Source: Squalus acanthias (taxonomy: Eukaryota). From it: a stretch of 64,000 bases of DNA. Of this stretch, positions 1,145 to 63,075 are shown one piece after another (the stretch's first letter is position 1; every line of letters starts with the position of its first letter). The notes below the pieces were generated by a model that had not been told where the DNA came from, did not search any database, and was given only the letters and a program-made list of their open reading frames with translations. Location: positions 93,622,001 through 93,686,000 of the forward strand of contig CM059432.1 of NCBI GenBank assembly GCA_030390025.1. Reading direction: 5' to 3'. Made by a program: the position numbers and the translations under genes.

Positions 1145-1880
1145 GTACGCACTGTGTACTCACCCGTAAGGCGTCCTGAAGTGCCGGTTTCCTGCATGCA
1201 CTGCGCATGCGCGGGAAACCGGAACTTCCGGTCTGGTGAAGGGGGCGGTTCATAGGTGAACCGCGTGCGCGGTAGAGGCTGCGCGCACACAGCAAACTTA
1301 GGTTTTTTTTCAGGTTTCTACGGGAAAGTAAGTATTGAAGAACCTACGCTTTTAAAAAGGAGGCGCAGGAGCCGTTTTCAACAAGGTAAGTGGTCAATTA
1401 AGTATAATTTAAAAAAAATTTCAACAGGTTTATCTTTTTTAGATACTTTAAAGAAAGGTAAGTTTATTTTTAGCACTGTTAAAAAGTATTTTAATTTTTT
1501 CAAAAATTTAAATTTTTGTTTAAAGTAGTTAATTTATTTAACTATAGTTATTTTATAAATGTGATGGTTTTTTAAAAAATTTATTTTAAGTTTAGCTGTT
1601 CTTTTGGGGCCGATTTCAATTCATAGATTTGACAGGTCTTCCTGTCAAATCTATGAATGAAAGATGGTCTGCTGCCATTGGCTCTCCATGGCCCACGTGA
1701 TCCCAGGGGATGCATCGCACTAACTGCACCCCTGGGACACGCAAGCACTGCGCGCCAGCACTTGGAGCAGGCCCAGGAGCTGAAGTTCCCGTGGGCCCAA
1801 AACACAACGGCAGGCGCGGTACGTAAGTGCGCGCGGGATCCTTACCCCCGCAGCAAGCCGGAGAGGCGAATTTCAGGGCC
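1145..1880. mobile_element. Harbinger-type MITE (left end outside the window)
   Basis: Reverse-complement homologue of 30660-31423; terminal AATTTCAGGGCC; internal palindromes. Confidence 0.75.
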
Positions 1881-1962
1881 AATATATTTCCAAGTCAGGA
1901 TGGTATGTAATTTGATGGGGAACTTGTAGGTGATGATGGCGACTGCTGCCCTTGTCCTTCTA

Positions 1963-3497
1963 AGAACATAAGAAATAGGAGCAGGAGTAGGCCATTCGGC
2001 CCTTCGAGCCTGCTTTGCCATTCAATGAGATCATGGCTAATCTTCTGCCTCAATTCCATTCACCGGCCCTATCGCCATATCCCTTGATGACATTACTAGT
2101 CAGAAATCTATCGACTTCTGTTTTGAATATACCCAATGACCGAGCCTCCACAGCCCTCTGGGGTAGAGAATTCCAAAGATTCACCACCCTGTGTGTGAAG
2201 AAATTTCTTCTCAGCTCAGTCCTGAATGGCCTACCCTTTATCCCGAGGCTGTGGCCCCTGGTTCTAGACTCCCCAGCCAAGGGAAACATTCTCCCAGCAT
2301 CCACCCTATCAAGCCCTGTAATAATTTTGTATGCTTCAATGAGATCCCCTCTCATTCTTCTGAATTCAAGAGAATACAGGCCTAGTTTACTCAATCTCTT
2401 CTCATACGACAGTCCCGCCATCCCAGGAATCAATCTCGTGAACCTTCGTTGCACTCCCTCTATGGCAAGTATATCCTTCCTTAGGTAAGGAGACCAAAAT
2501 TGTACACAGTACTCCAGGTGTGGTCTCACCAAGGCCCTATATAATTGGAGTAAGATTTCTTTACTCCTGTACTCAATTCCTCTTGTAATGAAGGCTAGCA
2601 TACCATTTGCCTTCCTAATGGCTTGCTGCACCTGTACATTCACTTTCAGTGACTCTTGTACAAGGATACCCAGGTCTCTTTGCGCATCTGCATTCCCCAA
2701 TCTTTCACCATTTAGGAAATATTCTGCCTTTCTGTTTTTTCTACCAAAGTGGATAACTTCATATTTATCCACATTATAATCCATCTGCCATGTTCTCGTC
2801 CACTCAGAGCCTGTCGAGATCCCCTTGAAGCCTCTTCACATCCTCTTTGCAACTGACACTGCCACCTAGCTTTGTGTCATCAGCAAATTTGGAAATGTTA
2901 CATTTAGTCCCCTCATCCAAATCATTGATATAGATTGTGAATAGCTGGGGCCCAAGCACCGATCCTTGCGGTACCCAACTAGTCACAGCCTGCCATCCTG
3001 AAAAAGACCCGTTTATCCCTACTCTTTGTTTTCTGTCTGTTAACCAATTCTCAATCCATGCTAGTATATTACCCCCAATTCGATGTGCCCTAATTTTGCT
3101 AACTTACCTGACGAAGGAGCGACAGCTCCGAAAGCTTGTAAAATTAAATAAATCTGTTGGACTATAACCTGGTGTTGTGCGACTTCTAATTTTGTTCACC
3201 AACCTTTTGTGTGGGACCTTATCGAAGGCTTTTTGAAAATCCAAATACACATCTACCGGTTCCCCTTTGTCTACTCCACTAGTTACAGCCTCAAAGAACT
3301 CCAATAGATTTGTCAAACAGGACTTCCCTTTCATAAATCCATGTTGACTCTGCCCAATCTTACTATTAGTTTCTAAGTGCCCAGTTATTGCATCCTTTAT
3401 AATAGATTCCAGCATTTTCCCAACTACTGATGTGAGGCTAACAGGTCTGTAGTTCCCCGTTTTCTCTCTCCCTCCTTTCTTAAATAGCGGGGTTACA
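1963..3497 (-). mobile_element. CR1 (HER1-like) LINE, 5'-truncated
   Basis: RT and C-terminal ORFs ([23 protein letters not shown]); (TTCTTATG)n tail; TTCTA target duplication at 1958-1962 and 3498-3502. Confidence 0.92.
3104..3141 (+). ncRNA. Minimal type I hammerhead ribozyme (Penelope-type)
   Basis: ttac-CTGACGA-a-ggagc(gaca)gctcc-GAAA-gc-tt-gtaa; lies in a ~87-nt insertion in CR1. Confidence 0.8.
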
Positions 3498-5001
3498 TTC
3501 TAGGTGGTAGAGGTCGTGGGTTTGGGAGGTGCCGCCAAAGAAGTCTTGGCGAGTTGCTGCAGTGCATCTTGTAGATGGTGCACACTGCAGCCACGGTGTG
3601 CCGGTGGTGGAGGGAGTGAATGTTTGAGGTGGTGGATGAGGTGCCAATTAAGCGGACTGCTTTGTCCTGGATGGTGTTGAGTTTCTTGAGTGTTGTTGGA
3701 GCTGCACTCATCCAGGCAAATGGTGAGTATTCTCATCACACTCCTGACTTGTGCCTTGTAGATGATGGAAAGGCTTTGGGGAGTCAAGAGGTGAGACACT
3801 CGCCGCAGAATACCCAGCCTCTGACCTGCTCTTGTTACCACAGTATTTATGTGGCTGGTCCAATTAAGTTTCTGGTCAATGGTGACCCCCAGGATGTTGA
3901 TGGTGGGGTACTCGGCGATGGTAATGCCGCTGATGTCAAGGGGAGGTGGTTAGAATCTCGCTTGGTGGAGACAGTCATTGCCTGGCACTTGTGTAGCATG
4001 CATGTTACCTGCCTCTTATCAGTCCAAGCTTGAATGTCGTCCAGGTATTGTTGCATGCGGGCATGGACTGCTTCATTATCTGAGGAGCTACGAATGGTAC
4101 TGAACACTATGCAAACATCAGCGAACATCCCCACTTCTGACCTTATGATGGAGGGAAGGTCATTGATGAAGCAGTTGAAGATGGTTGGGCCTAGGACACT
4201 GCCCTGAGGAACTCCTGCAGCGATGTCCTGGGCCTGAGATGATTGACCTCCAACAACCACTACCATCTTCCTTTGTGCTAGGTATGACTCGAGCCAGTGG
4301 AGAGTTTTCCCCGATTCCCATTGACTTCAAATTACTAGGGCTCCTTGATGCCACACTCGGTTAAATGCTGCCTTGGTGTCAAGGGCAGTCACTCTCACCT
4401 CACCTCTGGAATTCAGCTCTTTTGTCCATATTTGGACTAAGGCTGTAATGAGGTCCGGATCCGAGTGGTCCTGGCGGAACCCAAACTAAGCATCAGTGAG
4501 CAGGTTGTTGGTGAGTGAGTGCCACTTGATAGCAGTGTCGATGACACCTTCCATTACTTTGCTGATGATTGAGAGTAGACTGATGGGGCGGTAATTGGCC
4601 AGATTGGATTTGTCCTGCTTTTTGTGGACAGGACATATCTGGGCAGTTTTCCACAATGTCGGGTCGATGCCAGTGTTGTAGCTGTACCGGAACAGCTTGG
4701 CTAGAGGCACAGCTAGTTCTGGAGCACAAGTCTTCAGCACTACAGCCGGGATGTTGTCAGGGCCCATAGCCTTTGCTGTATCCAATGCGCTCAGCCGTTT
4801 CTTGATATCACGTGGAGTGAATCGAACTGGCTGAAGACTGGCTTCTGTGATGGTGGGGACCTCGGGAGGAGGCCGCGATGGATCATCCACTCGGCACTTC
4901 TGGCTGAAGATGGTTGCAAACGCTTCAGCCTTGTCTTTTGCACTCGCGTGATGGGCTCCACCATCATTGAGGATGGGGATGTTCATGGAGCCTCCTCCTC
5001 C

Positions 5002-8000
5002 TTTAAACTAATTAAAGGGGGGGTGGGAGGATTCAGGAAAGAGTGAATTTAAAAGCAGCGAGAGAAATGTCAAGGCTCTAGAGCAGAGTAGAGTTTTAGG
5101 TAAAAATAAGCAGAGTGGGTCAGGAAGGGTCAGAGAGAGTAACAAAGGTAATAAGGCATCAGTGACTAAGGTGACATCAGGGAAAAATAGAAATAAGTCA
5201 AAGCTAAAGGCACTATATCTGAATGTGCGAAGCATTCGCAACAAAGTAGATGAATTAATAGCGCAGGTAGAAATGAACAGGTTTGATCTACTAGCCATAA
5301 TGGAGACATGGTTGCAAAGTGGCCAAGGTTGGGGACTAAATATTCCAATATGCTTAACTTTTAGAAGAGATAGGCAAAATGAAAAAAGAGGAGGGGTAGC
5401 CCTGAAAATAAAGGATGGGATAAAGACAGTAGAGAGAAAGGATCTTAGCTCCGAAAATCAAGAAATAGAATCTGTTTGGGTGGAACTAAGAAACAGCAAG
5501 GGGTAGAAAACATTGGTGGGAGTTGTTTATAGGCCCCCAAATAGTAGTTGTAATGTAGGGCAGAGTATAAATCAGGAAATTAGAGGCACATGTAGCAAGG
5601 GTAATACAGTAATCATGGGGGACTTTAATCTACATATGGACTGGGCAAACCAAATTTGCAGTAATAATGTGGAGGACGAATTCATGGAATGTATGCAAGA
5701 TAGTTTTCTAGATCAGTATGTTGAGGAACCAATTATGGAACAGGCTATTTTAGATCTAGTATTGTAGAATGAGAAAGGGTTAATTAATAACCTTGTAGTA
5801 AAGGGGCCTTTAGGGAAGAGTGACCATAATATGACAAAATTTTATATTTAGTTTGAAAGTGATTTAGTTAAATCCAAAACTAGGGTCTTAAATCTAAACA
5901 AAGCAAACTACGTAGTTATGAGGGGCGAGTTGGCCAAGGTAGATTGGGAAACTACATTAAAAGATATGATGGTAGACAAGCAATGGCTAGCATTTAAAGA
6001 AATAATACATAGTTTACAACAAATATACATTCCTTTAAGGCACAAAAACCCCACAGGAAAAAGTGGTCCAACCGTGGCTAACAAGAGAAGTTAAAGATAG
6101 TATTAGATCAAAGGAAGAGGCTTAAAATGTTGCCAAAAAGAGTAGTAAGCCTGAGGATTGGAAGGATTTTAGAATTCAGCAAAGGATGATCAAGAAATTG
6201 ATAAGGAAAGAGAAAAAAGAATTGAGAGTAAACTAGCGAGAAACATAAAAAGACAGTAAAAGCTTCTACAGTATAAGTATGTAAAAAGGAAAAGATTAGC
6301 AAAAGTAAATGTGGGTCCCTTACAGGCTGAGACAGGAGAAACTATAATGGGGAATAAGGAAATGGCAGAGAAATTAAACAAATACTTTGTGTCTGTCTTC
6401 AAGGAAGAAGATGCAAAAAACTTCCTGGAAATAGTGGAGAACCAAGGCTCTAGCGAGAATGAGGAACTGAAAGAAATCAGTATTAGTAAAAAAAAAATAG
6501 TACTGGAGAAATTAATAGGACTGAAAGCTGATAAATCCCCTGGACTGGATGGCCTGCATCCTAGGGTTTTGAAAGAGGTGGCTATAGAGATAGTGGATGC
6601 ATTGGTTGTCATTTTCCAAAATTCCATAGATTCTAGAACGGTTCCCGCGATTGGAAGATAGCAAATGTAACCCCACTATTTAAGAAAGGAGGGAGGGAGA
6701 AATCGGCAACTACAGATTAGTTAGCCTGACATCAGTAGTAGGGAAAATGCTAGACTATTATTAAGGATGTGATAACAGGGCACTTAGAAAATAATAATAG
6801 GATTGGGCAGAGTCAACACGGATTTATGAAAGGGAAATCATGTTTGACAAATCTGTTAGAGTTTTTTGAGGTTGCAACTAACAGAATAGATGAGGGGGAA
6901 CCGGTGGATGTGGTGTATTTGGATTTTCAGAAGACATTCAATAAGGTGCCACACAAGAGGTTATTAAACAAAATTAGGGCTCATGGGATTGGGGGTAATA
7001 TACTAGCATGGATTGAGGATTGGTTAACAGACAGAAAACAGAGAGTAGGAATAAACGGGTCATTTTCGGGTTGGCAGGCTGTAACTAGTGGGGTACCGCA
7101 AGGATCAGTGCTTGGGCTTCAGCTTGTAAGGTTTCCAAAATTTGCAGATCCCCAAAACCTAAGGAAAAAGGACTTTGGAACTACCCCAGAGTGATAAAAA
7201 TGCATTTGGGCCTAACATAAGGAATTTAAGACCAAAAACCAAGTTTTGGCATTTTAAAAGACATGTCTGGACCTGTAAGGGAGAAAAGGCTGCACAGGAG
7301 GTGGGGTCGACCTCTATAAAAGCAGTTTTGGGTATTGCAGTTAAATTGCATTGTCTGGGGAATCGGGATGACCTCACTCAAGCCCCAGCAAGCATTAACA
7401 TTTTGACAATAAACCCTAGGAGAAGACAGTCTCATCCCATCAAAAACCAATCAGCTAAGAAGATCGACAGGATGCAAACCATCCAAAAAAAACCATTTGA
7501 CACTTACAGAACCCATTAAAGACATGCATAAAGATAGGAGTCCTAGGCCCAGTCAAGAAACCCAAAACATGAGGACAATGCAAACTCCGATTAAACAACA
7601 GATCGACAGGATGGAGCTATCTTGAATCCACTTCACACATTTATAAAACCAGTTAACATGCTAGTAAAGTCATTACTGTTAACGAGGTCTTACAATGAAC
7701 AGGATTTGATTTGGTTTTGACAAGGCCACTTCAATTTAGTATAATTGAAAGCCCATCAAGCAGTTACAACAGTTCAGTAAGAGGGGAGTTCAAGTTCTCC
7801 AGTAAAACAGTTCAAGTTCAACAGAAGGCAGTTCTACAGTTCAATCGAAAAGCCTGTTTTCAGCAAGAAGTCAGGGCTGGAGATAGAGTTCAGGAGAAGC
7901 AGGCAGAAGGCAGTTTCTACAGTTCTGCAAGAAGGCAGTTCCACAGCTCGGAAGAAGACAGTTTAAACAAAGGCAGAGTTACAGCAAGAAGTTCAACAAA

Positions 8001-9441
8001 GAAGGCCAACAACTTCACAAGCAGACCAACACGCAAGAAGAAACCAGAGCGACTGCCTCAGTGACCATCAGACACCTCACGGCAACAAGGGCCTTACGAA
8101 ACCTTTTACTCAAAAGACTCTAAACCCTAACTCTCAACTGTCAAGGATTCGTTTGGTGAGCATTATCCTTGGTTCTCCAGAGTCCAACCTAGCTAGTGAA
8201 GTGGGATTGGGAGGGGTGAAGTATTCTTCTAAGATTATTTCCCTCGCTTGTACCAATGTGTTCCCCAACCTGTGTTTAAGCATTAAGAGTGTTTTAAGTT
8301 TGTTACCTTTTTCTTTTAATAAAGTCAAAATTCTTTCATCAGAACCTGTTGTCCACTGCATCCTTATTCACAACCCCTAAATAAGTCCAAGGTCTAGAAC
8401 CAGGGGCGTGGGAGCGATTCGAACCGCTCACTGAGTCAGAGGTGAGGCTGACCCTATACACCACCCCCTACAAACTATTCACAATCTACATCAATGATTT
8501 GGATGAGGGGACCAAATGTAATATATTCAAGTTTGCTGATGATACAAAGTTGGGAGGGAATGTAAGTTGTGAGGAGGATGCAAGAAGGCTTCAAGGGGAT
8601 ATAGACAGGCTAAGTGAGTGGGCAAGAACATAGCAAATGGAATATAATGTGGAGAAATGTGAAGTTATCCATTTTGGTAGGAAAAATAGAAAAGCAGAGT
8701 ATTTTTTAAGTGGTGAGAGATTGGGAAATGTTGTTGTTCAGAGGGACCTGGGTGTCTTTGTACACGAATCACTGAAAGTTAACATGCAGGTACAGCAAGC
8801 AATTAAGAAAGCAAATGGTATGTTGGCCTTTATTACAAGAGGATTTGAGTATAAGAGTAAAGACATCCTACTGCAATTATATAGGGCCCTGGTGAGACCA
8901 CACCTGGAGTATTGTGTACAGTTTTGGTCTCCTACTTGCCATAGAGGGAATGCAACGAAGGTTCACCAGACTGATTCCTGGGATGGGGGGATTGTCCTAT
9001 GAGGAGAGATTGAGTAGACTAGACCTATATTCTCTAGAGTTTAGAAGAATGAGAGGTGATCTCATTGAAACATACAAAATTCTTACAGGGCTTGACAGGG
9101 TAGATGCAGGGAGGATGTTTCCCCTGGCTGGGGAGTCTAGAACCAGGGGTCACAGTCTCAGAATAAGTGGTCGGCCATTTAGGACTGAGATGAGGAGAAA
9201 TTTCTTCACTCAGAGGGTAGTGAATCTTTGGAATTCTCTACCCCAGAGGGCTGTGGAGGCTTAGTCATTGAGTATATTCAAGACAGAGATCAATAGATTT
9301 TTGAATATTAAGGAAATCAAGGGATATGGGGATAGTTCAGGAAAGTGAAGATGAGGTAGAAGATCAGCCATGATCTTATTGAATGGCAGAGCAGGCTCGA
9401 AGGGCCAAATGGCCTATTCCTGCTCCTATTTCTTATGTTCT
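5002..9441 (+). mobile_element. CR1 LINE, nearly complete ORF2 (APE + RT), decayed, split by a solo LTR
   Basis: [42 protein letters not shown]; 3' tail ttcttatgttct. Confidence 0.93.
7125..8472 (+). mobile_element. Solo LTR (~1.35 kb), Gypsy-like
   Basis: TGTAAGG...CCCTACA termini; 4-bp target duplication agct/aact; interrupts CR1 RT at QL|FTIY; AATAAA at 8318; no PBS or PPT in the flanks. Confidence 0.85.
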
Positions 9442-11819
9442 CCCATTAGTTGTTTAATTGTCCACCACCATTCACGACTGGACATTGATTGTGGGATTGC
9501 TTAGCTGTCTATAGCATGCTGCTTCTACTGTTTAGCATGCATGTAGTCCTGTGTTGCAGCTTTCCCAGGTTGGCACCTCATTTTTAGGTATGCCTGGTGT
9601 TGCTCCTGGCATGCTCTTCTGCACTCCTCATTGAACCAGATTTGGTCCCCTGACATGATGGTAACGGTCGAATGAGGGATATGCCAGGCCATGATGTTAC
9701 AGATTGTGGTGGAATACAATTCTGTTGCTGCTGATGGCCCACAGCGCCTCATGAATGCCCAGTTTTGAGCTGCTAGATGTATTCTGAATCTATCCCATTT
9801 AGCACGGTGGTAGTGCCACACAACACGATGGAGTGTGTCCTCAGTCTGAAGACGGGATTTCATCTCCACAAGGAGACGAATTCCCATGATCACTGCTACC
9901 AATGCGGTCATGGACAGATACAGCTGCGACAGGTAGATTGATGAGGACGAGGTCAAGTAGGTTTTTCCTTCGTGTTGGTTCTCTCACCACCTGTCGCAGG
10001 CCCAGTCTGGCAGCTATGTCCTCAGCCAGCTCGGTCAGTAGTGGTGCTACCGAGCCACTCTTGGTGATGGACATTGAAGTCCCCCACCCAGAGTACATTC
10101 TGTGCCCTTGCTACCCATGTGTTCAACATGGAGCAGTATGGATTCATCAGCTAAGGGAGGGTGGTAGGTGGTAATCAGCAGGAGGTTTCCTTGCCTGTAG
10201 TTGACCTGAAGCCATTGTTCAGAGTCAATGTTGAGGACTCCCAGGGCCACTTCCTCCTGACTGAATACCACTGTGCCGCCACCTCTGGTGGATCTGTCCT
10301 GCCAGTGGCACAGAGCATACCCAGGGATGGTGATGGAGGAGTTTGGGACATTGGCTGAAAGGTATGATTCTGTGAGTATGACTATGTCAGGCTGTTGCTT
10401 GACTAGTCTGTGGGACAGCTCTCCCAATTTTGACATAAGTCCCCACATGTTAGTGAGGAGGTCTTTGCAGGGTCGACTGGGCTGGGTGTGCCATTGTTGT
10501 GTCCGAAGCTGGTGCCTAGGTCGATGCCAGGTGGTCCATCCGGTTTTATTCTTGTTATTGCTTTTCATAGCTGTTTGTTACAACTGAGTGGCTTGCTAGG
10601 CCATTTCAGAGGGCAGTTAAGAGTCAACCACATTGCTGTGGGTCTGGAGTCACATATAGGCTAGGCCAGACCAGGTAAGGACAGCAGATTTCCTTCCCTA
10701 AAGGACATTAGTGAAACAGATGGGTTTTTACGACAATCCGGTAGTTTCATGGTCACCATTACTGATACTTTTGAGCATTATGAGGTAATTTGTTTGTTTA
10801 AGCAAAGTTATGATTAAACAGTAAGTCATACAACTTAATAGTGCAGTTAAAGATAAATTTTCCACTCCTGGCACAGGTTGGGAGCATAAATCAGCAATAC
10901 GCATCCCTTGCCCATAAATTTTCCTCCCATAAATATCAAGCAGAAATTTATCTTTAAATGATTTAAAGCAGGAATGTAAAGAGATTAACCAGCAAACAAT
11001 GAGGAAAGCTGTGGATGAGGTGGGGCGGGGAATGTCTGGAACAGAAAAGGAATTGCAAACAGGTCAGGAAAGGATGCAGACAGGTGGGAAGGCAATGTAG
11101 TCGGTCCTTAAAATCTACTTCACCTGTCTTAATATGGCTCGATGTCAAATTTTGTCTGATAACGCTGCTGTGATGTGCCTTGGGACGTTTTACTACATTA
11201 AAGGTGCTAAATAAATACAAGTTATTGTTGTAGCAGAAGGGTTGGGGCCTAAAGGGACAAAGGGTGTATTTTTTGAGTCCCACTCCTCCCACAGGGCTGC
11301 TGGACCATGCTCCCCCCAATACTGCCAGAGTTTGACCTGCCAAATCTCCAAAACCACTTCCCCAATCCTCCCGAATTCCAGGACCTCCTCCCATGATACC
11401 CTCTCCCCCTTTTCCAGATCCGGGATCCCCCTCTCAAATCCCTAGACAGCATTCTCAGATCTCAGGATCACCCTGAGACCATCCTCTCCAACACTCCCCA
11501 GATGACCCCTACCAGTGAGCTCGGATTCCAAAATCTGCCCCAGTGTTCCCAGAACTTCTTTCTTCAGTGTACCCGGAACCCCCTCCTAGTGCAGGGAAGG
11601 GACCTACTCTCAAAATACATCTAGAGCCCGATACCCCATCCCAATACTGCCAGACCTCAGGCCTTGTTCCCAGATCCTAGAGCCACCCCAATGCTGTGTC
11701 CCTGAATATTACTTTGCTCAACATCCCTGTCCTTCTACAATTTCCAACGACTGTGACCAATGCTGCAGATCTGCTAGTATGTCGAATACATAATAGCTAT
11801 TAGAGAAACAGTCCATCTT

Positions 11820-12600: not shown

Positions 12601-12973
12601 AGTTGTGGTGTTGCACATGGTCTTCATCTAGTCTTCAGGTGAAGTGGGTTAGAGGATAGTGGATAATTGGACCAGGGCGCACAGACATAATTCATTCTTT
12701 TTGTATAATATTTTGATTTGATATTATAGTTAAATAGCAAAACTTACACTAATTTGGCAAACAAGTATCTTCACCACACGGACTGGAGCGGTTCAAGGCG
12801 GCGGCTCACCACCTCCTTCTCGAGGGTTATTAAGAATGGGCAATAAATGCTGGCCGTGCCACATCCCACGAATGAGTAAAAAAAAACAGGGAAGTAGAGC
12901 TGATTGGAGCATACGCATTCCTCTTCAGTACGGACTGAGGAGCTAATTGAGATGAAAAACTAAACTGCTACTG

Positions 12974-13836
12974 CAGCAGCAAATTACCCAGCTTTCAGGA
13001 GAACAGCGACCACGACACAACCCTGCCACGGCAACCTCTGCAAGACATGCCAGATCATCAACACAGATACCATCATCACACGTGAGGACACCACCCACCA
13101 GGTACATGGTACATACTCATGTGACTCAGCCAACATTGTCTACCTCATACGTTGCAGGAAAGGATGCCCCGGAGCATGGTACATCGGCGAGACCATGCAG
13201 ACACTGCGACAACGTATGAACGGACACCGCGCAACAATCACCAGGCAGGAGTGTTCCCTCCAAGTCGGGGAACACTTCAGCAGTCAAGAACATTCAGACT
13301 CCGATCTTCGGGTAAGCATTCTCCAAGGCGGCCTTCGAGACACACGACAACGCAAAATTGTCGAGCAGAAACTGATAGCCAAGTTCCGCACCCATGAGGA
13401 CGGCCTCAACCGGGATCTTGGGTTCATGTCACGCTACATGTAACCCCACCTGACGTAGAGTCATCCAGACTCGAGTCGTCGTTGGCTTGTTCTCTCTACA
13501 CAGATGCGGCTGGACCTGCTGTGATTTCCAGCAAAAAAAGTTTTTTGTTTTCCATACAGACCCCAGCATCTGCCACATTGTCTTTGATGTAATGTTTTCC
13601 TGACTGACCTGTTTGGACACCATCCACACCTTTGATTGCAGTGATTATCTCTCTGCCGAGGTGTGATAAAGGGCAGTTGGAAAGATTAACTATAATCATC
13701 TGGCAGTGTTCTCTGACTATATATGCTGTGACTATATGCATCTCTTCACTTCACCTGACGAAGGAGCAGCGCTCCGAAAGCTTGTGATTTCAAATAAAGC
13801 TGTTGGACTATAACCTGGTGTTGTGCGACTTCTCAC
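12974..13836 (+). mobile_element. Penelope-like element, 3' part (GIY-YIG endonuclease + pseudo-LTR)
   Basis: CDSANIVYLIRCRKGCPGAWYIGETMQTLRQRMNGHR...GLNRDLG; hammerhead near the 3' end. Confidence 0.9.
13751..13787 (+). ncRNA. Minimal hammerhead ribozyme in Penelope-like element
   Basis: tcac-CTGACGA-a-ggagc(agc)gctcc-GAAA-gc-tt-gtga. Confidence 0.82.
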
Positions 13837-17063: not shown

Positions 17064-17879
17064 TCATGATGTGGAGATGCCGGCGTTGGACTGGGGTGGA
17101 CAAAAATGAGAAGTCGCACAACACCAGGTTATAGTCCAACAGATTTATTTAATTTTACAAGCTTTCGGAGCTATCGCTCCTTCGTCAGGTAAGTTAGCAA
17201 TGAGAGAATCTCCCAGAATTCACAATTTAAACCCAGACAAAATCTATTCACATTATTCGCTACAACAAAGAGCACAGCCAAGACAATGAGATGTGTCCCA
17301 GGGGGTCCAGCGTGTCAAACCACCTGCTGGCTGCATATCCTGTCAATTTGTGTTCTTGTGTTTTTAAAAAAAAAACAAAAAAAAAACAAAAAAAAAACAA
17401 AAAAAAACACCTGGGAAGACCGGCCATGATGTCAAGTCACGTTCTGTATCGTGACATGAACCCGATATCGCGATTGAGGCCATCCTCATGAGTGCGGAAC
17501 TTGGCTATCAGTTTCTGCTCTATGATTTTGCGCTGTCGTGTATCTCGAAGGCCGCCTTGGAGAACGCTTACCCGCAGATCCGAGGCTGAATGCCCCTGGC
17601 TGCTGAAGTGTTCCCCGACTGGGAGGCAACCCTCCTGCCTGGCGATTGTTGCGCGGTGTCCGTTCATACGTTGTCTCAGTGTCTGCATGGTCTCGCCGAT
17701 GTACCATGCTCTGGAGCATCCTTTACTGCAACGTATCAGGTAGACAACGTTGGCCGAGTCACATGAGTAGGTACACGGTACATACTCATGTGACTCGGCC
17801 AACGTTGTCTACCTGATACGTTGCAGTAAAGGATGCTCCAGAGCATGGTACATCGGCGAGACCATGCAGACACTGAGAC
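17064..17879 (-). mobile_element. Penelope-like element with 5' snap-back inversion
   Basis: GIY-YIG ORF 17437-17802; 97-bp inverted repeat; hammerhead at 17155-17192. Confidence 0.9.
17155..17192 (-). ncRNA. Minimal hammerhead ribozyme in Penelope-like element
   Basis: Reverse complement reads ttac-CTGACGA-a-ggagc(gata)gctcc-GAAA-gc-tt-gtaa. Confidence 0.82.
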
Positions 17880-20695
17880 TGTTAGGGAGGGAGTTCCAGG
17901 ATATTGACCCAGCGATGGTGAAGGAATGGTAATATATTTCCAAGTCAGGGTGGTTTGTAACTTGGAGAGGAACTTGCAGGTGATGGTGTTCCCATGCACC
18001 TGCTGCCCTTGTCCTTCTAGGTGGTAGAGGAAGAGGTCACAGGTTTGGGAGGTGCTGTCAAAGAAGCCTTGGCGAGTTGCTGCAGTGTATCTTGTAGATG
18101 GTACACACTGCAGCCATGGTGTACCGGTGGTGGAGGGAGTGACTGTTTAAGGTGGTGGATGACACTTGCCGCAGAATACCCAGCCTCTGGACCTGCTCTT
18201 GTAGCCACAGTATTTATATGGCTGGTTAATGGTGACCCCCCCCCCCCCCCAGAATGGTGATGGTAATGCCGTTGAATGTCAAGGGACAGTAGCTAGACTC
18301 TCTCTTGTAGAGATGTCATTGCCTGGCACTTGTGTGGCGTGAATGTTACTTGCCACTTATCAGCCCAAGCTTGAATGTTGTCCAGGTCTTGCTGCATTCG
18401 GGCATGGACTGCTTCATTATCTGGGGGAGTTGCGATTGGAATTGAACACTGTGCAATCATCAGCGAACATCCCCACTTCTGACCTTATGATGGAGGGAAG
18501 GTCCTTGAAGCAGCTGAAGATGGTTGGGCCTAGGACACTGTCCTGAGGAACTCCTGCAGTGATGTCCTGGGGCTGAGATGATTGACCTCCAACAACCACC
18601 TTCCTTTGTGCTAGGTAGGACTCCAGCCAGTGGAGAGTTTTCCTCTGATTCCCATTGACTTCAATTTTACTAGGGCTCCTTGATGCTACAATCGGTCAAA
18701 TGCTGCCTTGATGTCAAGGGCAGTCACTCTCACCTCACCTCTGGAATTCAGCTCTTTTGTCCATGTTTGGACCAAGGCTGTAATGCGGTCTGGAGCAAAG
18801 TGGTCCTGGCAGAACCCAAACTTATTGGAGAGTAAGTGCCGCTTGATAGCACTGTCGACGACACCTTCCATCACTTTGCTGATGATTGAGAGTAGACTGA
18901 TGGGGCGGTAATTGGCCAGATTGGATTTGTCCTGCTTTTTGTGGACAGGACATACCTGGGCGGTTTACCACATTGTCGGGTAGATGTCAGTGTTTTAACT
19001 GTACTGGAACAGCTTGGCTAGAGGTGCAGCTAGTCTGGAGCACAGGTCTTCAGCACGACAGCTGGTATGTTGTCGGGGCCCATAGCGTTTGCTGTATCCA
19101 GTGCACTCAGCCGTTTCTTGATATCTCGTGGAGTGAACGAATTGGCTGAAGACTGGCTTCTGTGATGATAGGATGTCAGGAGGAGGCCGATATGGATCAT
19201 CCGCTCGGCACTTCTGGCTGAAGATGGTTGCAAACGCATCAGCCTTGTATTTTTCGCTCGCGTTTTGGGCTCCTCCATCATTGAGGATGGGGATATTCAT
19301 GGATGTTTAATTGTCCACCACCATTCACGACTGGATGTGGCAGGACTGCAGAGCTTTGATCTTGCTCCATTGGTTGTGGGATTGCTTAGCTCTGTCTATA
19401 GCATGCTGCTTTCGCTGTTTAGCATGCATGTAGTCTTGTGTTGCAGCTTCCTCAGGTTGGCACCTCATTTTTAAGTATGCCTGGTGCTTTTCCTGGCATG
19501 CTCTTCTACACTCCTCATTGAACCAGGGTTGGTCCCCTGGCTTGATGGTAATGGAGTGAGGGATATGCCAGACCATGAGGTTACAGATTGTGGTGGAGTA
19601 AAATTCTGCTGCTGCTGCTGATGCCTCATGGATGGCCAGTTTTGAGCTGCTAGATCTGTTCTGAATCTATCCCATTTAGCACGGTGGTAGTGCCACACAA
19701 CACGATGGAGGGTGCCCTCACTGAAGACGGGTCTTTGTCTCCACAAGGACTGTGGTGCTCACTGCTAACAATGCTGTCATGGACAGATGCATCTGCAACT
19801 AGTAGATTGGTGAGGACGAGGTCAAGTAGGTTTTTCCCTCGTGTTGGTTGTCTCACCACCTGCCGCAGACCCAGTCTGGCAGCTATGCCCTTCAGGACTC
19901 AGCCAGCTCCGTCAGTAGTGGTGCTACCGAGCCACTCTTGGTGCTGGCCATTGAAGTCCCCCACCCAAAGTACATTCTGTGACCTTGCTACCCTCAGTGC
20001 TTCTTCCAAGTGGTGTTCAACATGGAGTAGTACTGATTTATCAGCTGAGGGAGGGCGGTAGGTGGTAATCAGCAGGAGGTTTCCTTGCCTATGCTTGACC
20101 TGAATCAATGCGACTTCATGAGGTCCTGAGTCAATGTTGAAGACTCCCAAGGCCAATCCCTCCCTCCCGTATACCACTGTGCCGCCACCCCTGGTGGGTC
20201 TGTCCTGTTGATGGCGGAGTCTGGGACATTGGCTGAAAGTGATTCTGTGAGTATGACTATGTCAGGCTGTTGCTTGACTAGTCTGTGTGACAGCTCTCCC
20301 AATTTTGACACAAGTCCCCAGATGCTAGTGAGGAGGACTTTGCAGGGTTGACTGGCCTGGGTGTGCCATTGTCATGTCCAAAGTCGGTGCTGAGGCCGAT
20401 GCCAGGTGGTCTCTCTGGTTTTATTATTATTGTGTTTCGTAGCGGTTTGTTACAACTGAGTGACTTGCTAGGCCATTTCAGAGAGCAGTTAAGAGTCAAC
20501 CACATTGCTGTGGGTCTGGAGTCACATGTAGGCCAGACCAGGTAAGGACGGCAGATTTCCTTCCCTAAAGGACATTAGCGAACCAGATGCGTTTTTACGA
20601 CAATCCGATAGTTTTCATGGTCACCATTACTGATGCTAGCTTTTTATTCCAGATTTATTTCATTAACTGAATTTAAATTCCCCAGCTGCCGTGGT

Positions 20696-20771
20696 GGGAT
20701 TTGAACTCATGTCTCTGGATTATTAGTCCAAGCCTCTGGATTACTAGTCCAGTAACATAACCACTATGCTA
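20696..20771 (-). promoter_or_regulatory. Pol III type-2 internal promoter (A box TAGCATAGTGG 20771-20761; B box GAGTTCAAATCCC 20708-20696)
   Basis: Match to TRGCNNARYGG and GTTCRANNC consensus at the element's 5' end. Confidence 0.75.
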
Positions 20772-20799
20772 CCGTTCCCGTAATAAAACAAAGGAAGCT

Positions 20800-32356: not shown

Positions 32357-34990
32357 TTTTTTTTATATCCCTGGCAAGGTCAGCATTTATTGCTCATCCC
32401 TAATCTCCCTTGAGAAGGTGGTGGTGGTGAGCCACCTTCTTGAACTGCTGCTGTCCGTGTGGTGAAGGTACTCCCATAGTGCTGTTAGGGAGGGAGTTCC
32501 GGGATTTAGACTCAGCAATGATGAAGGAATAGTGATATATTTCCAAACCAGGATGGTGTGTGACTAGGAGGGAAACTTGCAGATGATGGTGTTCCCATGT
32601 GCCTGTTGCCCTTGTCCTTCTAGGTGATAGAGGTCGTGGGTTGGGGAGATGCTGTTGAAGAAGCCCTGGCGAGTTGCTGCAGTGCATCTTGTAGATGGTA
32701 CACACTGCAGCCATGGTGCGCCGGTGGTGGAGGGAGTGAATGTTTAATGTGGTAGATAGGGTGCCAATCAAGATAATGAAGTAGTCCATGTCCGCATGCA
32801 GCAAGACCTGGATGACATTTAGGCTTGGGCTGATAAGTGGCAAGTAACATTCGCGCCACACAAGTGCCAGGCAATAACTATCTCCAACAAGCGAGAGTCT
32901 ATCCACCGCCCCCTGACATTCAATGGCATTACCATCGCCGAATCCCCCACCATCAACATCTTGGGGGTCTGCATTGACCATAAACTTAACTGGACCAGCC
33001 ACATAAATACTATGGCTACAAGAGCAGGTCAGAGGCTGGGTATTCTGTGACGAGTGTCTCATAAGAACATAAGAATTAAGAGCAGGAGTAGGCCATACGG
33101 CCCCTCGAGCCTGCTCCGCCATTCAATAAGATCATGGCTGATCATCGACCTCAACTCCACTTTCCCGCCCGATTTCCATATCCCTTGATTCCCCTAGAAT
33201 CCAAAAACCTATCTATCTCAGCCTTGAATATACTCAAAGACTCAGCATTCACAGCCCTCTGGGGCAGAGAATTCCAAAGATTCACAACCCTCTGAGTGAA
33301 GAAATTCCTCCTCATCTCAGTCTTAAATGGCCTACCCCTTATCCTGAGACTATGCTCCCTAGCTCTAGACACTCCAGCCAAGGGAAACAACCTCTCTGCA
33401 TCTACCCTGTCAATCCCCTTCAGAATCTTGTATGTTTCAATGAGATCACCTCTCATTCTTCTAAACTCCAGAGAGTATAGGCCCAATCTACTCAATCTTT
33501 CATCATAGGACAGCCCTCTCATCCCAGCAATCAATCTAGTGAACCTTTGTTGCACCGCCTCCACGGCAAGTATATCCTTCCTTAGATAAGGAGACCAAAA
33601 CTGTGCACAGTACTCCAGGTGTGGTCTCACCAAGGCCCTGTACAATTGTAGCAAGACTTCCTTACTCTTATACTCCAACACCCTTGCAATAAAGGCCAAC
33701 ATGCCATTTGCCTTTCTTATTGCTTGCTGTACCTGCATGCTAGTTTTCTGTGTTTGTTGCACGAGGACACCCAAATCTCTCTGAACACCAACATTTGAAA
33801 GTTTCTCACCATTTAAAAAATATTCTGTTTTTCTGTTCTTCCTACCAAAGTGAATAACCTCACATTTCCCCACATTATACTTCATCTGCCACCTTACTAC
33901 CCACTCACTTAGTCTAACTATATCCCTTTGCAGACTGTGTTCTCCTCACAGTTTACTGTCCCACCTAGCTTTGTATCATCAGCAAACTTGGACACATTAC
34001 ACTCGGTCCCTTCATCTAGGTCATTAATATAGGTTGTAAATAGCTGAGGCCCCAACACTGATCCTTGCGGCACCCCACTATTTACAGCCTGCCAACCTGA
34101 AAAACATCCATTTATCCCTACTCTCTGTTTTCTGTCCATTAACCAATCCTCTATCCATGCTATTATATTACCCCCAACCCCATGAGCCCTAATCTTGTGT
34201 AATAATCTTTTATGTGGCACCTTATCGAATGCCTTTTGGAAATCCAAATATACTACATCCACTGGTTCCCCTTTATCTACCCTGCTAGTTACATCCTCAA
34301 AAAACTCTAATAAATTTGTCACCTCCAAAGCCTTTCCACCATCTACAAGGCACAAGTCAGGAGTGTGATGGAATACTCTCCACTTGCCTGGATGAGTGCA
34401 ACTCCAACAACACTCAAGAAGCTCGACACCATCCAGGACAAAGCAGCCCGCTTGATTGGCACCCCATCCACCACCTTAAACCTACATTACAACAGTGACT
34501 ACACTCAAAAAGTACTTCATTGGCTGTTAAGCACTTTGAGTCGTCCGATGGTCGTCTAAAGCTTTATATAAATACAAGTCTTTTTCTTTCTTTCTTTTAA
34601 ATATTCACTCACCCCACCACTGGCGCACCGTGGCTGCAGTGTGTACCATCTACAAGATGTACTGCAGCAACTTGCCAAGCTTCTTCGACAGCACCTCCCA
34701 AACCCGCGACTTCTACTACCTAGAAGGACAAGGGCAGCAGGCGCATGGGAACAGCATCATCTGCAAGTTCCCCTCCCAAATCACACACCATCCTGACTTG
34801 GAAATATATTGCCGTTCCTTCATCGTCGCTGGGTCAAAATCCTGGAACTCCCTACCTAACAGCACTATGGGAGTGCCTTCACCATATGAACTGCAACGGC
34901 TCACCATCACCTTCTCGAGGGCAATTAGGGATGGGCAATAAATGCTGGCCTTGCCAGCGTCGCCCACATCCCAGGAATGAATTAAAAAAA
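32357..34990. mobile_element. Two back-to-back LINE-B 3' fragments (32357-32770 minus; 32771-34990 plus, split by CR1 and an L2-type tail at ~34481-34598)
   Basis: [37 protein letters not shown] 3' tails at both outer ends. Confidence 0.8.
33062..34318 (-). mobile_element. CR1 LINE, 5'-truncated
   Basis: ORFs 33151-33885 and 33918-34355; (TTCTTATG)n tail. Confidence 0.9.
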
Positions 34991-41164: not shown

Positions 41165-42510
41165 GGGCCTGAATTTGTGGCGGAGGCCTCGGGAACCACA
41201 GAGACTCGCGCTCCTGGGTCTCTGCGTAGACATGCGCAGAGGCCCACGTATCCCAGGGGAGCATGCGGTTCGCAAGCGCCACTAGGATCACGTGAGCCAG
41301 CCCAACGAATGACAGAAGGGGGCTCCCTATTCATTCTTAATCGGGATTCTGTATGTATGGAAACCCCATAAATATAAATGGGAATACCCCAAAAAATGCC
41401 TCTACACTTCAAATAAATAAATAAAAAAATCACATTTACAATTAATTAAAATGGCATTTAATTAAATATTTAAAACAATTTAATTTTTTGAAAAATAAAT
41501 TTACATGTTTTAAAAGGGCTGAAAATAAACTTGCCTTATTTCACAGGTATATTAAATGTATAAATTATTGATAAAATTTTATTTTTCTGTTTTTTAAAAC
41601 TTACTCTGGTTGACCAGAAACTTAACTGGACCAGCCACATAAATACTGTGGCAACAAGAGCAAGTCAGAGGCTGGGTATTCTGTGGCAAGTGTCTCACTT
41701 CCTGACTCCCCAAAGCCTTTCCACCATCTACAAGGCACAAGTAAGGAGTGTGATGGAATACTCTCCACTTGCCTGGATGAGTGCAGCTCCAACAACACTC
41801 AAGAAGCTCGACACCATCCAGGACAAAGCAGCCCGCTTGATTGGCACCCCATCCACCACCTTAAACATTCACTTCCTCCACCACCGGTGTACTGTGGCTG
41901 CAGTGTGTACCATCTACAAGATGCACATCAGCAACTTGCCAAGGCCTCTTTGGCAGCACCTCCCAAACCCGTGACCTCTTCCACCTAGAAGGACAAGGGC
42001 AGCAGGTGCATGGGAACACCACCACCTCCAAGTCACACACCATCCTGACTTAGAAATATATCGTCGATCCTTCATCGTCGCTGGGTCAAAATCCTGGAAC
42101 TCCCTACCTAACAGCACTGTGGGAGTACCTTCACCACACGGACTGCAGCGGTTCAAGAAGGTGGATCACCACCACCTTCTCGAGGGCAATTAGGGATGGG
42201 CAATAAATGCTGGCCTTGCCAGCGATGCTCACATCCCATAAACGAATAAAAAAAATTAAAAAGCATACCTTACGCCTACTTTTACCAGGCGTAAGAATTT
42301 CATGGGCATTTGCTGGGCAGAAGTTGGGCAAATAGTCCAACTCTCTGCCCGTGGATGCCCTATTCCTGGGGATGCGGATCATCTGTCAAGAAATTGCTTG
42401 ACAGATCACAAGTTCCAGGTTTTAGCGCACGCGCAGCGCATGCCTAAATCTGGAACTTGCACTGCCCTTACGGGCACGTACGCACCCGTAGGGGCTGCAA
42501 ATTACAGCCC
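41165..42510. mobile_element. Harbinger-type MITE containing a LINE-B 3' fragment (~41606-42260, plus)
   Basis: TIRs GGGCCTGAATTTG / CAAATTACAGCCC; AAT duplication; LINE-B ORF 41648-41974. Confidence 0.8.
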
Positions 42511-49905: not shown

Positions 49906-50220
49906 ATCCTACTCTAAGATATCCACAAAGGTCAAGGAAACCTCCAAATTGTTTGGACCTGCAGATAGTTATGAGTGTAGTAGTTCTCATTATGGTTCTA
50001 GTATTAGCATAACCCATCTTTCCTGTGTATTACCGGGAGAGTGCTATAGTTATTTATTTTTATCATGTAATTGTAAGATGTAGTGACTGAATTTCTTTAC
50101 TTAATTTTTTTTTAACATTAACCAGGCTCATTCTAGGAGATGATTGTTTTCACCTTGTAATTCTGAGGGGGGAAAGTGACACCAGATGGACCCCTGTTGG
50201 GAATAAGCACATTGTAGCTA

Positions 50221-50493
50221 TTTTTTTATTTATTCACGTGGGCATCGCTGGCAAGGCCAGCATTTATTGCCCATCCCTGGTGAGCCGCCTTATATAACTG
50301 GCTTGCCAGGCCATTTCAGAGGGCATTTAAGTGTTAACCACATTGCTGTGGGTCTCGAGTCACATGTAGGCCAGACTGGGTAAGGATGGCAGATTTCCTT
50401 CCCTGAAGGACATTAATGAACCAGATGGGTTTTTCTGACAATCCAGTAGTTTCATGGTCACCATTACTGATACTAGCTTTTTATTCCAGATTT
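50221..50493 (-). mobile_element. SINE made of LINE-B 5' body joined to LINE-B 3' tail (SacSINE1-like; 5'-truncated)
   Basis: 50297-50493 matches 20455-20655; 50221-50291 matches the LINE-B 3' end. Confidence 0.8.
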
Positions 50494-61982: not shown

Positions 61983-63075
61983 ATGGGGGCTCTACTGGCA
62001 GCCCCCCTCACGCTCAAGTATCTTCGGGAGAGGGAGCAGAGGCAGCGAAGAAGTCAAGAAGATACGCGCAGAGAGAGGAGGAGGAGGAGGGCCAGGGGGC
62101 TCTCCACAGGAGGCCTTACCCACCTAGAGTCTTCTGAGAGCACTTCTCTTATATCCACTTAAGCGAAGAGCAGTGTATTAGGATGCTCTGCTTCACCAAG
62201 GAGGTGGTCACAGAACTCTGCCACCTCCTGCAACCAGACCTGCAGCCTGAGCTCCTAGTGGCAGTCAAAGTCACCGTGGCCCTCAATTTCTTTGTCAGCA
62301 GTTACATCCAGTCTGTAGCAGGAGACATAGCTAACATCTCACAGTTCGCTGTCCATTGCTGCATCTGGGAGGTCACTGAGGCTTTCTACACCAGGAGAAG
62401 GGACTACATTTTCTTCTCTCTCAGCAGAGAGAAGCAGGACGAGTGCGCATGTGGCTTTGCCAGGATAGCGGGCATCCCCATGATGCAGGATGCCATCAAC
62501 TGCACTCACGTGGCTTTGCGGGCACCGCATAACAATCCTGAGATCTCCTATAACTGCAAAGGCTACCACTCACTTAATGTGCATTTGGTGTGTGACCACA
62601 CCCAGCACTTCCTGATGGTCAGTTCCCGCTATCCTGGCAGCAGCCATGATGCCTTCACCCTGCGTCAGTCTGATGTGCCAGCAATCTTCCAGCCACCACA
62701 TAAAACTCGAGGGTGGCTGCTCGGAGACAAGATTCTATCCGCTCTGCACTTGGCTCATGATTCCTCTCCGCAACCCCAACACTCATGCCCAGCACTCATA
62801 TAATGAGACTCATGCTTCCACCAGGAACATCATCAAGCAGACCATCGAGCTACTGAAGCAACAGTTCCACTACCTTGACCACTCGGGAGTAGCCCTCCAG
62901 TAGTCGGCAGAGCGGGTGTCCCATTTCGTGGTGGTCTGCTGCGTGCTTCACAACTTGGCCATCATGAAGGTGTAGCCATACCACCAGGGATTGGGGGACC
63001 ACCTCAGGAGGAGGATGAGGGAAAGGAGGAGGAGGAGGAAGAGGAAGATGAGCAAGAGGAAGAGGACAAGTAGGA
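61983..63075 (+). pseudogene. Harbinger (HARBI1-like) DDE transposase, inactivated
   Basis: RRPYPPRVF*..VKVTVALNFF..QDAINCTHVALRAP..KGYHSLNV..YPGSSHDAF..LLGDK..HASTRNIIKQ..CVLHNLA; acidic tail; stops and frameshifts. Confidence 0.88.

Follow-up and report, generated by a model that had tools for sequence, protein, structure and literature searches.

The elasmobranch LINE Zenon carries a tRNA-like head, avoids T-runs on its coding strand and is probably transcribed by RNA polymerase III

Judged from its sequence, the elasmobranch LINE Zenon is probably an autonomous element that RNA polymerase III (Pol III) transcribes. Transcription from its tRNA-like head would best explain, taken together, the point at which full-length copies start, a deficit of runs that is specific to T and to one strand, a T-tract at the 3′ terminus and the missing AUG of the open reading frame (ORF). 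We analyzed a 64,000-nucleotide stretch of Squalus acanthias (contig CM059432.1, positions 93,622,001 to 93,686,000; hereafter the window), for which the original prediction had described a "LINE-B" whose sense strand avoids TTTT (T4) over kilobases, and had ascribed this to selection for Pol III read-through of a coding sequence. By sequence comparison this element is Zenon. The family is already known, but its tRNA-headed, T-run-poor architecture appears to be undescribed.

The window contains the following Zenon copies and pieces, with consensus positions referring to the family consensus described below.

9440..10769, minus strand: 5′ part of Zenon copy 1 (consensus 145-1535), 88% to consensus; truncated within the leader and without the tRNA-like head, spans the endonuclease region, no sense T4
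3498..5001, minus strand: reverse transcriptase (RT) region of copy 1 (consensus 1532-3038), 93.6% to consensus; RVT_1 match, no sense T4
1882..1962, minus strand: continuation of copy 1 (consensus 3034-3121), past a second CR1 insertion
5008..9441, plus strand: CR1 insertion that divides copy 1 and itself contains an insert (about 7125-8474); outside the Zenon element
18161..20781, minus strand: Zenon copy 2 (consensus 1-2742), 5′ end complete; one later T4 at 19600-19603
17879..18161, minus strand: further 3′ piece of copy 2 (consensus 2898-3174)
20693..20781, minus strand: tRNA-like head of copy 2, A box 20761-20771, B box 20697-20708
20440..20481, minus strand: predicted anticodon-like hairpin and in-frame GCU of copy 2, just inside the ORF start
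10568..10609, minus strand: predicted anticodon-like hairpin and GCU of copy 1
41610..42255, plus strand: 5′-truncated 3′ fragment that retains the stop, AATAAA, GAAT and an A-tail; no sense T4
34325..34990, plus strand: 3′ fragments ending in GAATT and an A-tail, with an insert at 34482-34596; no sense T4
32368..33061, 32368-32772 on the minus and 32771-33061 on the plus strand: 3′ fragment with a 5′ inversion; no sense T4
50220..50493, minus strand: SINE-sized derivative, leader fused to tail and ORF deleted

The span 3498..10770 given in the original prediction is Zenon only in its flanking parts; the middle (5008-9441) is the CR1 insertion, which is itself interrupted. The 1.35-kb insert within this CR1 begins with TGTA, ends with TACA, contains AATAAA and short internal repeats, and looks like a solo LTR. 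The tRNA head attributed to the element is present in copy 2, while copy 1 starts at consensus 145 and is headless. The 5′ inversion of the copy at 32368-33061 has the pattern of twin priming, a process known from L1. Other elements in the window include Penelope-like (GIY-YIG) pieces at 12964-13443 (plus strand) and 17437-17879, and a fragment at 62138-62803 (plus strand) matching a DDE_Tnp_4 (Harbinger-type) transposase (E 2e-10). The Penelope-like family is young, with about 97% identity between copies and with 920-codon frames still intact at other places in the genome (L198, L207), and its A-runs are strongly depleted (five to six A4 versus about 22 expected under a fixed-protein null).

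The Zenon consensus, obtained by majority rule from 16 long S. acanthias copies, measures 3,307 nt and comprises the tRNA-like head, a 330-nt leader, a single frame of 973 codons, a short tail and the poly(A) that is found at Zenon 3′ ends. The ORF carries endonuclease (APE) and RT motifs, and natural copies match the Exo_endo_phos and RVT_1 profiles. There is no ORF1: the leader alone lies 5′ of the ORF, and its AUG-started frames reach at most 76 codons. Elasmobranch Zenon elements have been described with a single APE-RT ORF, no ORF1, poly(A) and a length of about 3.3 kb in the available passages of Stuart et al. 2026 (PMC13343379), so that the likeness extends over ORF content, poly(A), length and the first 400 nt. 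Over those 400 nt, compared by eye, the published SquAca_Zenon-1 (3,314 nt) equals our consensus almost letter for letter. A quick tree of 39 rows, with no named Zenon among them and with long branches as outgroups, placed our element with its best database relatives, away from the CR1 and L2 of the host. Daphne, an initial candidate for the family, was given up for Zenon. A genome search with the head and the ORF start listed 40 matches, the best of 9,955 candidates; leaving the copy of the window aside, the remaining 39 were retrieved, and most extend to the tail. The exact pattern of the leader-ORF junction has 2,832 matches in the genome.

In the main text of PMC13343379 the terms 'tRNA' and 'polymerase III' each occur zero times, and the available passages mention neither the head nor T-run avoidance, the terminal T-tract or the missing AUG. 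Within the open-licence literature, the listings and passages found describe no Pol III-transcribed autonomous LINE and no tRNA head on Zenon.

The counts behind the original prediction were confirmed. Plus-strand AAAA, which is T4 on the sense strand of both copies, is absent from 3498-5001 and 9442-10770, and 17880-20780 holds exactly one, at 19600-19603. Its interpretation as a later mutation gains weight, as ACAA is found here in copy 1 and also in the family consensus. A strand-aware count was needed for the fragments at 32360-33060, which lies partly on the plus strand, and at 34320-34990 (without its insert) and 41606-42245, which lie wholly on it; all three are indeed free of sense T4. 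In total the window holds 19 Zenon segments (8,791 nt), which contain 35 sense A4 against one sense T4, in agreement with the claim that A4 is frequent, and the adjoining CR1 is rich in T4 as had been stated (15 in 3,080 nt, 8.5 expected). For copy 1 alone, 4.4 T4 would be expected by chance (P=0.012). Since Zenon copies are not independent of each other, however, the test properly applies to the family consensus. It has no T4 either, in line with the original prediction, and seven runs of at least three T (T3+), versus 14 A4, 11 C4 and nine G4.

How unusual this is depends on the null. Shuffling bases gave an expectation of 3.9 T4 (P=0.017) and 20 T3+, a value as low as the observed one being reached in 0 of 2,000 shuffles. 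The T4 count, which had been proposed to fall below such nulls, did so against base composition, but not against dinucleotide shuffles (1.4 expected, P=0.22) or permutation of the element's own codons (1.8 expected, P=0.11); trinucleotide shuffles gave 0.5 (P=0.58). Uniform synonyms predicted 5.1 (P=0.002), and a fixed protein with the element's own four-fold base frequencies 3.4 (P=0.019). The small P values of the fixed-protein null overstate the case, because this null overshoots runs in general: Zenon itself has 34 A3+ versus 47 under the null, and the T3+ of Penelope also fall below it (8 vs 13.7 and 7 vs 15.2). The zero T4 count is by itself modest, and the real signal is a graded avoidance of TT and TTT. 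TT stands at 0.70-0.71 of expectation (o/e) in the consensus, and Phe is encoded by TTC and TTT in a ratio of 15:3. Across 208 kb of copies we counted 31 internal T4 at 25 sites, with at most three copies per site, versus 930 A4. Silent positions followed by T carry a T in 8 of 59 cases, those followed by A or C in 97 of 356 (OR 0.42, p=0.024); the same comparison is flat in the other LINEs of the host (CR1 OR 1.14, L2 OR 1.45). The corresponding test at second codon positions was flat in Zenon (OR 0.71, p=0.26; CR1 0.73). Inherited changes created a T-run in 0 of 13 cases versus 48 of 536 private ones, a comparison without power.

Other elements of the same host do not share the deficit. Among segments of one genome, T4 o/e is 0.11 for Zenon, 1.33 for CR1 and 1.05-1.20 for L2. 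The two intact 920-codon Penelope ORFs are T-poorer (17% T) and contain three and two T4; their TT o/e values of 1.03 and 1.10, versus 0.70 in Zenon, reveal no TT deficit.

Among relatives of the element, 79 of 80 metagenome loci (26-40% identity) have T4 within the ORF. The question raised by the original prediction, whether relatives are equally depleted, has a divided answer: in T%, TT o/e and T3 o/e Zenon lies below each of the 64 relatives whose ORF is at least 1,500 nt long, but L133, one of these 64, also has zero T4 (5.4-6.9 expected). Of the 64, this locus (L133:54-2789, about 29% identity, 2.7-kb ORF) ranks lowest in TT and T3 ratio; since it lacks its 5′ end, it could be a second headed lineage. 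In the silent T-T odds ratio only one of the 64, L081, lies below Zenon. The A and B box pattern that finds the Zenon head was absent from all 26 long leaders of relatives. ARAGORN called no tRNA in the 48 of 80 relative loci searched, which is a weak test because it also misses the Zenon head. The closest relatives form the group P0001-P0012 (42-47% identity), and their nearest stand-ins L070 and L080, both partial loci, have two and four T4 against 3.5 and 4.3 expected. Four proteins (P0026, P0029, P0030 and P0033) are about as poor in Phe (1.65-1.85%) as Zenon (1.85%), the median of 120 being 3.3%; P0026 and P0029 fall into the Zenon neighbourhood on the quick tree. Over the first 400 nt covered by the published consensuses, five elasmobranch Zenon-1 sequences have the same kind of head and no T4, and those of hagfish and coelacanth are headless with T4 present.

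The head at the Zenon 5′ end has A and B boxes, which are kept in five species over the published stretch. Its Rfam tRNA score of 19-20 bits (19.1 for copy 2) is under the gathering score of 29, and ARAGORN called no tRNA in it. For a view of 5′ ends that was independent of the head, 40 were taken from 96 copies ranked by the RT protein only, leaving out the query's own copy and one match at a contig edge. Six of the 40 cover the entire element up to positions 1-9, a seventh has the head as a separate piece, and 33 have scattered starts between 160 and 1908. The upstream flanks of these 40 copies gave five pairwise matches at unrelated offsets and no shared alternative 5′ end. Full-length copies begin about 10 nt 5′ of the A box. 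Folding of the whole leader was no better than that of shuffles (z -0.66). Three AATAAA occur in the first 365 nt, at consensus 123, 134 and 359 (about 20420-20660 in copy 2, minus strand); the remainder of the ORF has no further one.

In 46 headed copies, changes common to at least 15% of them comprise 36 silent and 25 replacement changes and no stop, whereas private changes comprise 431 silent, 1,111 replacement and 68 stop changes (p=3e-7 versus shared). The frame is therefore shown to be under purifying selection in headed copies, which means that the headed element was coding.

At the 3′ end, AATAAA is found 8 nt past the stop; GAA, a T-tract and the A-tail come about 40 nt after it. The AATAAA at consensus position 3262 is intact in 76 of 80 aligned segments. 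The terminal tract consists of one T at 40 of 67 ends, two at six, three at ten and at least four at ten, and it is absent from one. At least three T are present at 20 of the 67 ends, whereas an internal GAAT-A5 site has them in one of 50 cases (p=5e-5). A genome-wide search with one tail variant found at least four T at 1,383 ends, and a looser pattern had 10,873 matches; among the first 100 matches listed, at least four T occur at ten terminal and no internal sites, the internal control site showing two T in 18 and three in five of its first 100 genomic matches. T-runs recurring solely just 5′ of the A-tail are suggestive of the T+ SINE layout by analogy, but not decisive. In the T+ SINEs B2, Dip and Ves, AATAAA, a T-tract that varies in length and may be complete or rudimentary, and an A-tail follow each other as in Zenon; those SINEs are short, non-coding and mammalian, whereas Zenon is 3.3 kb long and coding, with at least four T at only 10 of 67 ends. 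According to the available passages of Vassetzky et al. 2021 (PMC8466645), daughter copies of T+ SINEs inherit shortened terminators, and T-tracts also lengthen after insertion, in 24% even of a T-minus subfamily. Such T-creep after insertion could be an alternative source of the terminal tracts. Terminal T length showed no correlation with copy age (Spearman 0.07, p=0.56).

The first in-frame AUG of Zenon is codon 287, downstream of the endonuclease. The frame opens with Q-T-A-T-K, and the relative P0006 starts with M-A-T-K. An ATG near consensus 360 was rejected as a start because it is not in frame and only about half of the copies have it. Beside the ORF start we found a predicted hairpin with the 7-nt loop CUAGCAA, which presumably resembles the anticodon loop of tRNA-Ala, and whose UAGC could pair with an in-frame GCUA (probability by chance 0.025, post hoc). 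Among 50 copies, 16 have a tolerated G-U in the stem, 13 differ at the base that would correspond to U33, and none shows compensatory changes. The five published elasmobranch Zenon heads carry the hairpin and GCU as well, as far as their first 400 nt extend. No Rfam IRES model matched at E<=10. The hairpin with its GCU is on these predictions a candidate non-AUG initiation element. A parallel would be pseudoknot I of the dicistrovirus IGR IRES, with an anticodon-like loop that could pair with a codon lying in frame immediately ahead of a non-AUG start (PMC3517527, in part), whereas Zenon has neither a match to an Rfam IRES nor covariation nor other identified IRES domains.

SINE-sized forms of Zenon, in which the leader is joined to the last ORF codons, have 138 exact matches in the genome to their deletion junctions. 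Their several distinct breakpoints suggest a repeated origin of SacSINE1-like elements by deletion of the ORF. We take the Zenon body to resemble SacSINE1 and the Deu domain. The Deu-SINEs SacSINE1 and LmeSINE1 have a tRNA head with A and B boxes, a conserved body and a LINE-type tail within about 430-460 nt (Luchetti et al. 2017, PMC5499810, in the available passages, which assign the tail to L2-2_CM). The Zenon deletion forms have the same size; unlike Deu-SINEs, Zenon itself has a 973-codon ORF under selection that separates the body from the tail. It shares the A/B-box head with tRNA-derived SINEs (SINE2), but not their short, non-coding state.

The favoured reading, transcription by Pol III, has to be weighed against three others. 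The strand poor in T and TT might reflect only the composition or codon usage of the lineage, unrelated to Pol III, with RNA made by Pol II through a captured head or host read-through and polyadenylated ordinarily at AATAAA. That fixed dinucleotides or own codon usage account for the zero T4, that AATAAA lies about 40 nt 5′ of the tail, that Penelope too is scarce in homopolymer runs, and that four of 120 relatives are equally Phe-poor and L133 lacks T4 all speak for this. However, the deficit concerns sense-strand T specifically while CR1, L2 and Penelope of the same host retain T4, on three measures Zenon lies beyond every one of the 64 long relatives, the start of full-length copies is about 10 nt 5′ of the A box, and three AATAAA in the first 365 nt would be awkward for a Pol II transcript; we consider the compositional explanation unlikely.

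It is improbable, in our view, that the head serves as an RNA-processing or structural module (e.g. an RNase P-type cut site) on longer Pol II transcripts, U-runs being avoided at the RNA level because of, for instance, small-RNA processing or proteins that bind U-rich RNA. The sharpness of the 5′ end at the head would fit cleavage as well as initiation, and the missing AUG is compatible with any uncapped RNA, yet five species retain the A and B boxes, other host retroelements under the same RNA surveillance keep their U-runs, and none of our tests supported a cut site. Finally, Zenon could be a long non-autonomous SINE, that is, a Pol III unit carrying a dead LINE ORF, mobilized in trans and lacking T4 without being translated. 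We hold this to be very improbable: though no AUG precedes codon 287 and both ends recur in the SINE-sized forms (138 exact matches to the junctions), the ORF is open over 973 codons with APE and RT motifs, the 40 RT-selected copies have no other shared 5′ end upstream, and the silent/replacement ratio, with inherited changes in headed copies under purifying selection, largely refutes it.

Under Pol III transcription, TFIIIC and Pol III would use the A and B boxes of the head, and transcription would have selected against T-runs along the 3.3-kb coding strand. Pol III may then read through 3.3 kb, stop at the terminal or a downstream T-tract, and yield an RNA polyadenylated via AATAAA like those of T+ SINEs. 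T4 is an efficient terminator of human Pol III, with read-through being common (bioRxiv 10.1101/2025.10.17.683076, in part). The selection for Pol III read-through originally proposed is partly supported: it agrees with the zero T4, the tRNA-like head and those T4 that the host controls keep; against it, the deficit extends equally to TT and TTT. More speculatively, the RNA may be uncapped and its non-AUG start set by pairing of the anticodon-like hairpin with the in-frame GCU. Only tentatively do we extend this to a whole cycle without Pol II, in which Pol III initiation, termination at the T-tract, AAUAAA-directed polyadenylation and cap- and AUG-free translation from a tRNA-Ala mimic would be combined, with SacSINE1-type SINEs as internal-deletion offspring.

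LINEs are usually viewed as Pol II transcripts and SINEs as non-coding Pol III transcripts (PMC5786205, in the available passages). If Zenon is transcribed as proposed, a coding element that is successful and widespread and has a tRNA promoter would blur the line between the two and would provide a natural multi-kilobase Pol III mRNA, in which cap-independent translation of a Pol III RNA could be tested directly. Its compact RT/endonuclease cassette would be of interest for gene-insertion tools, and a shark SINE family could have originated through deletion of the ORF.
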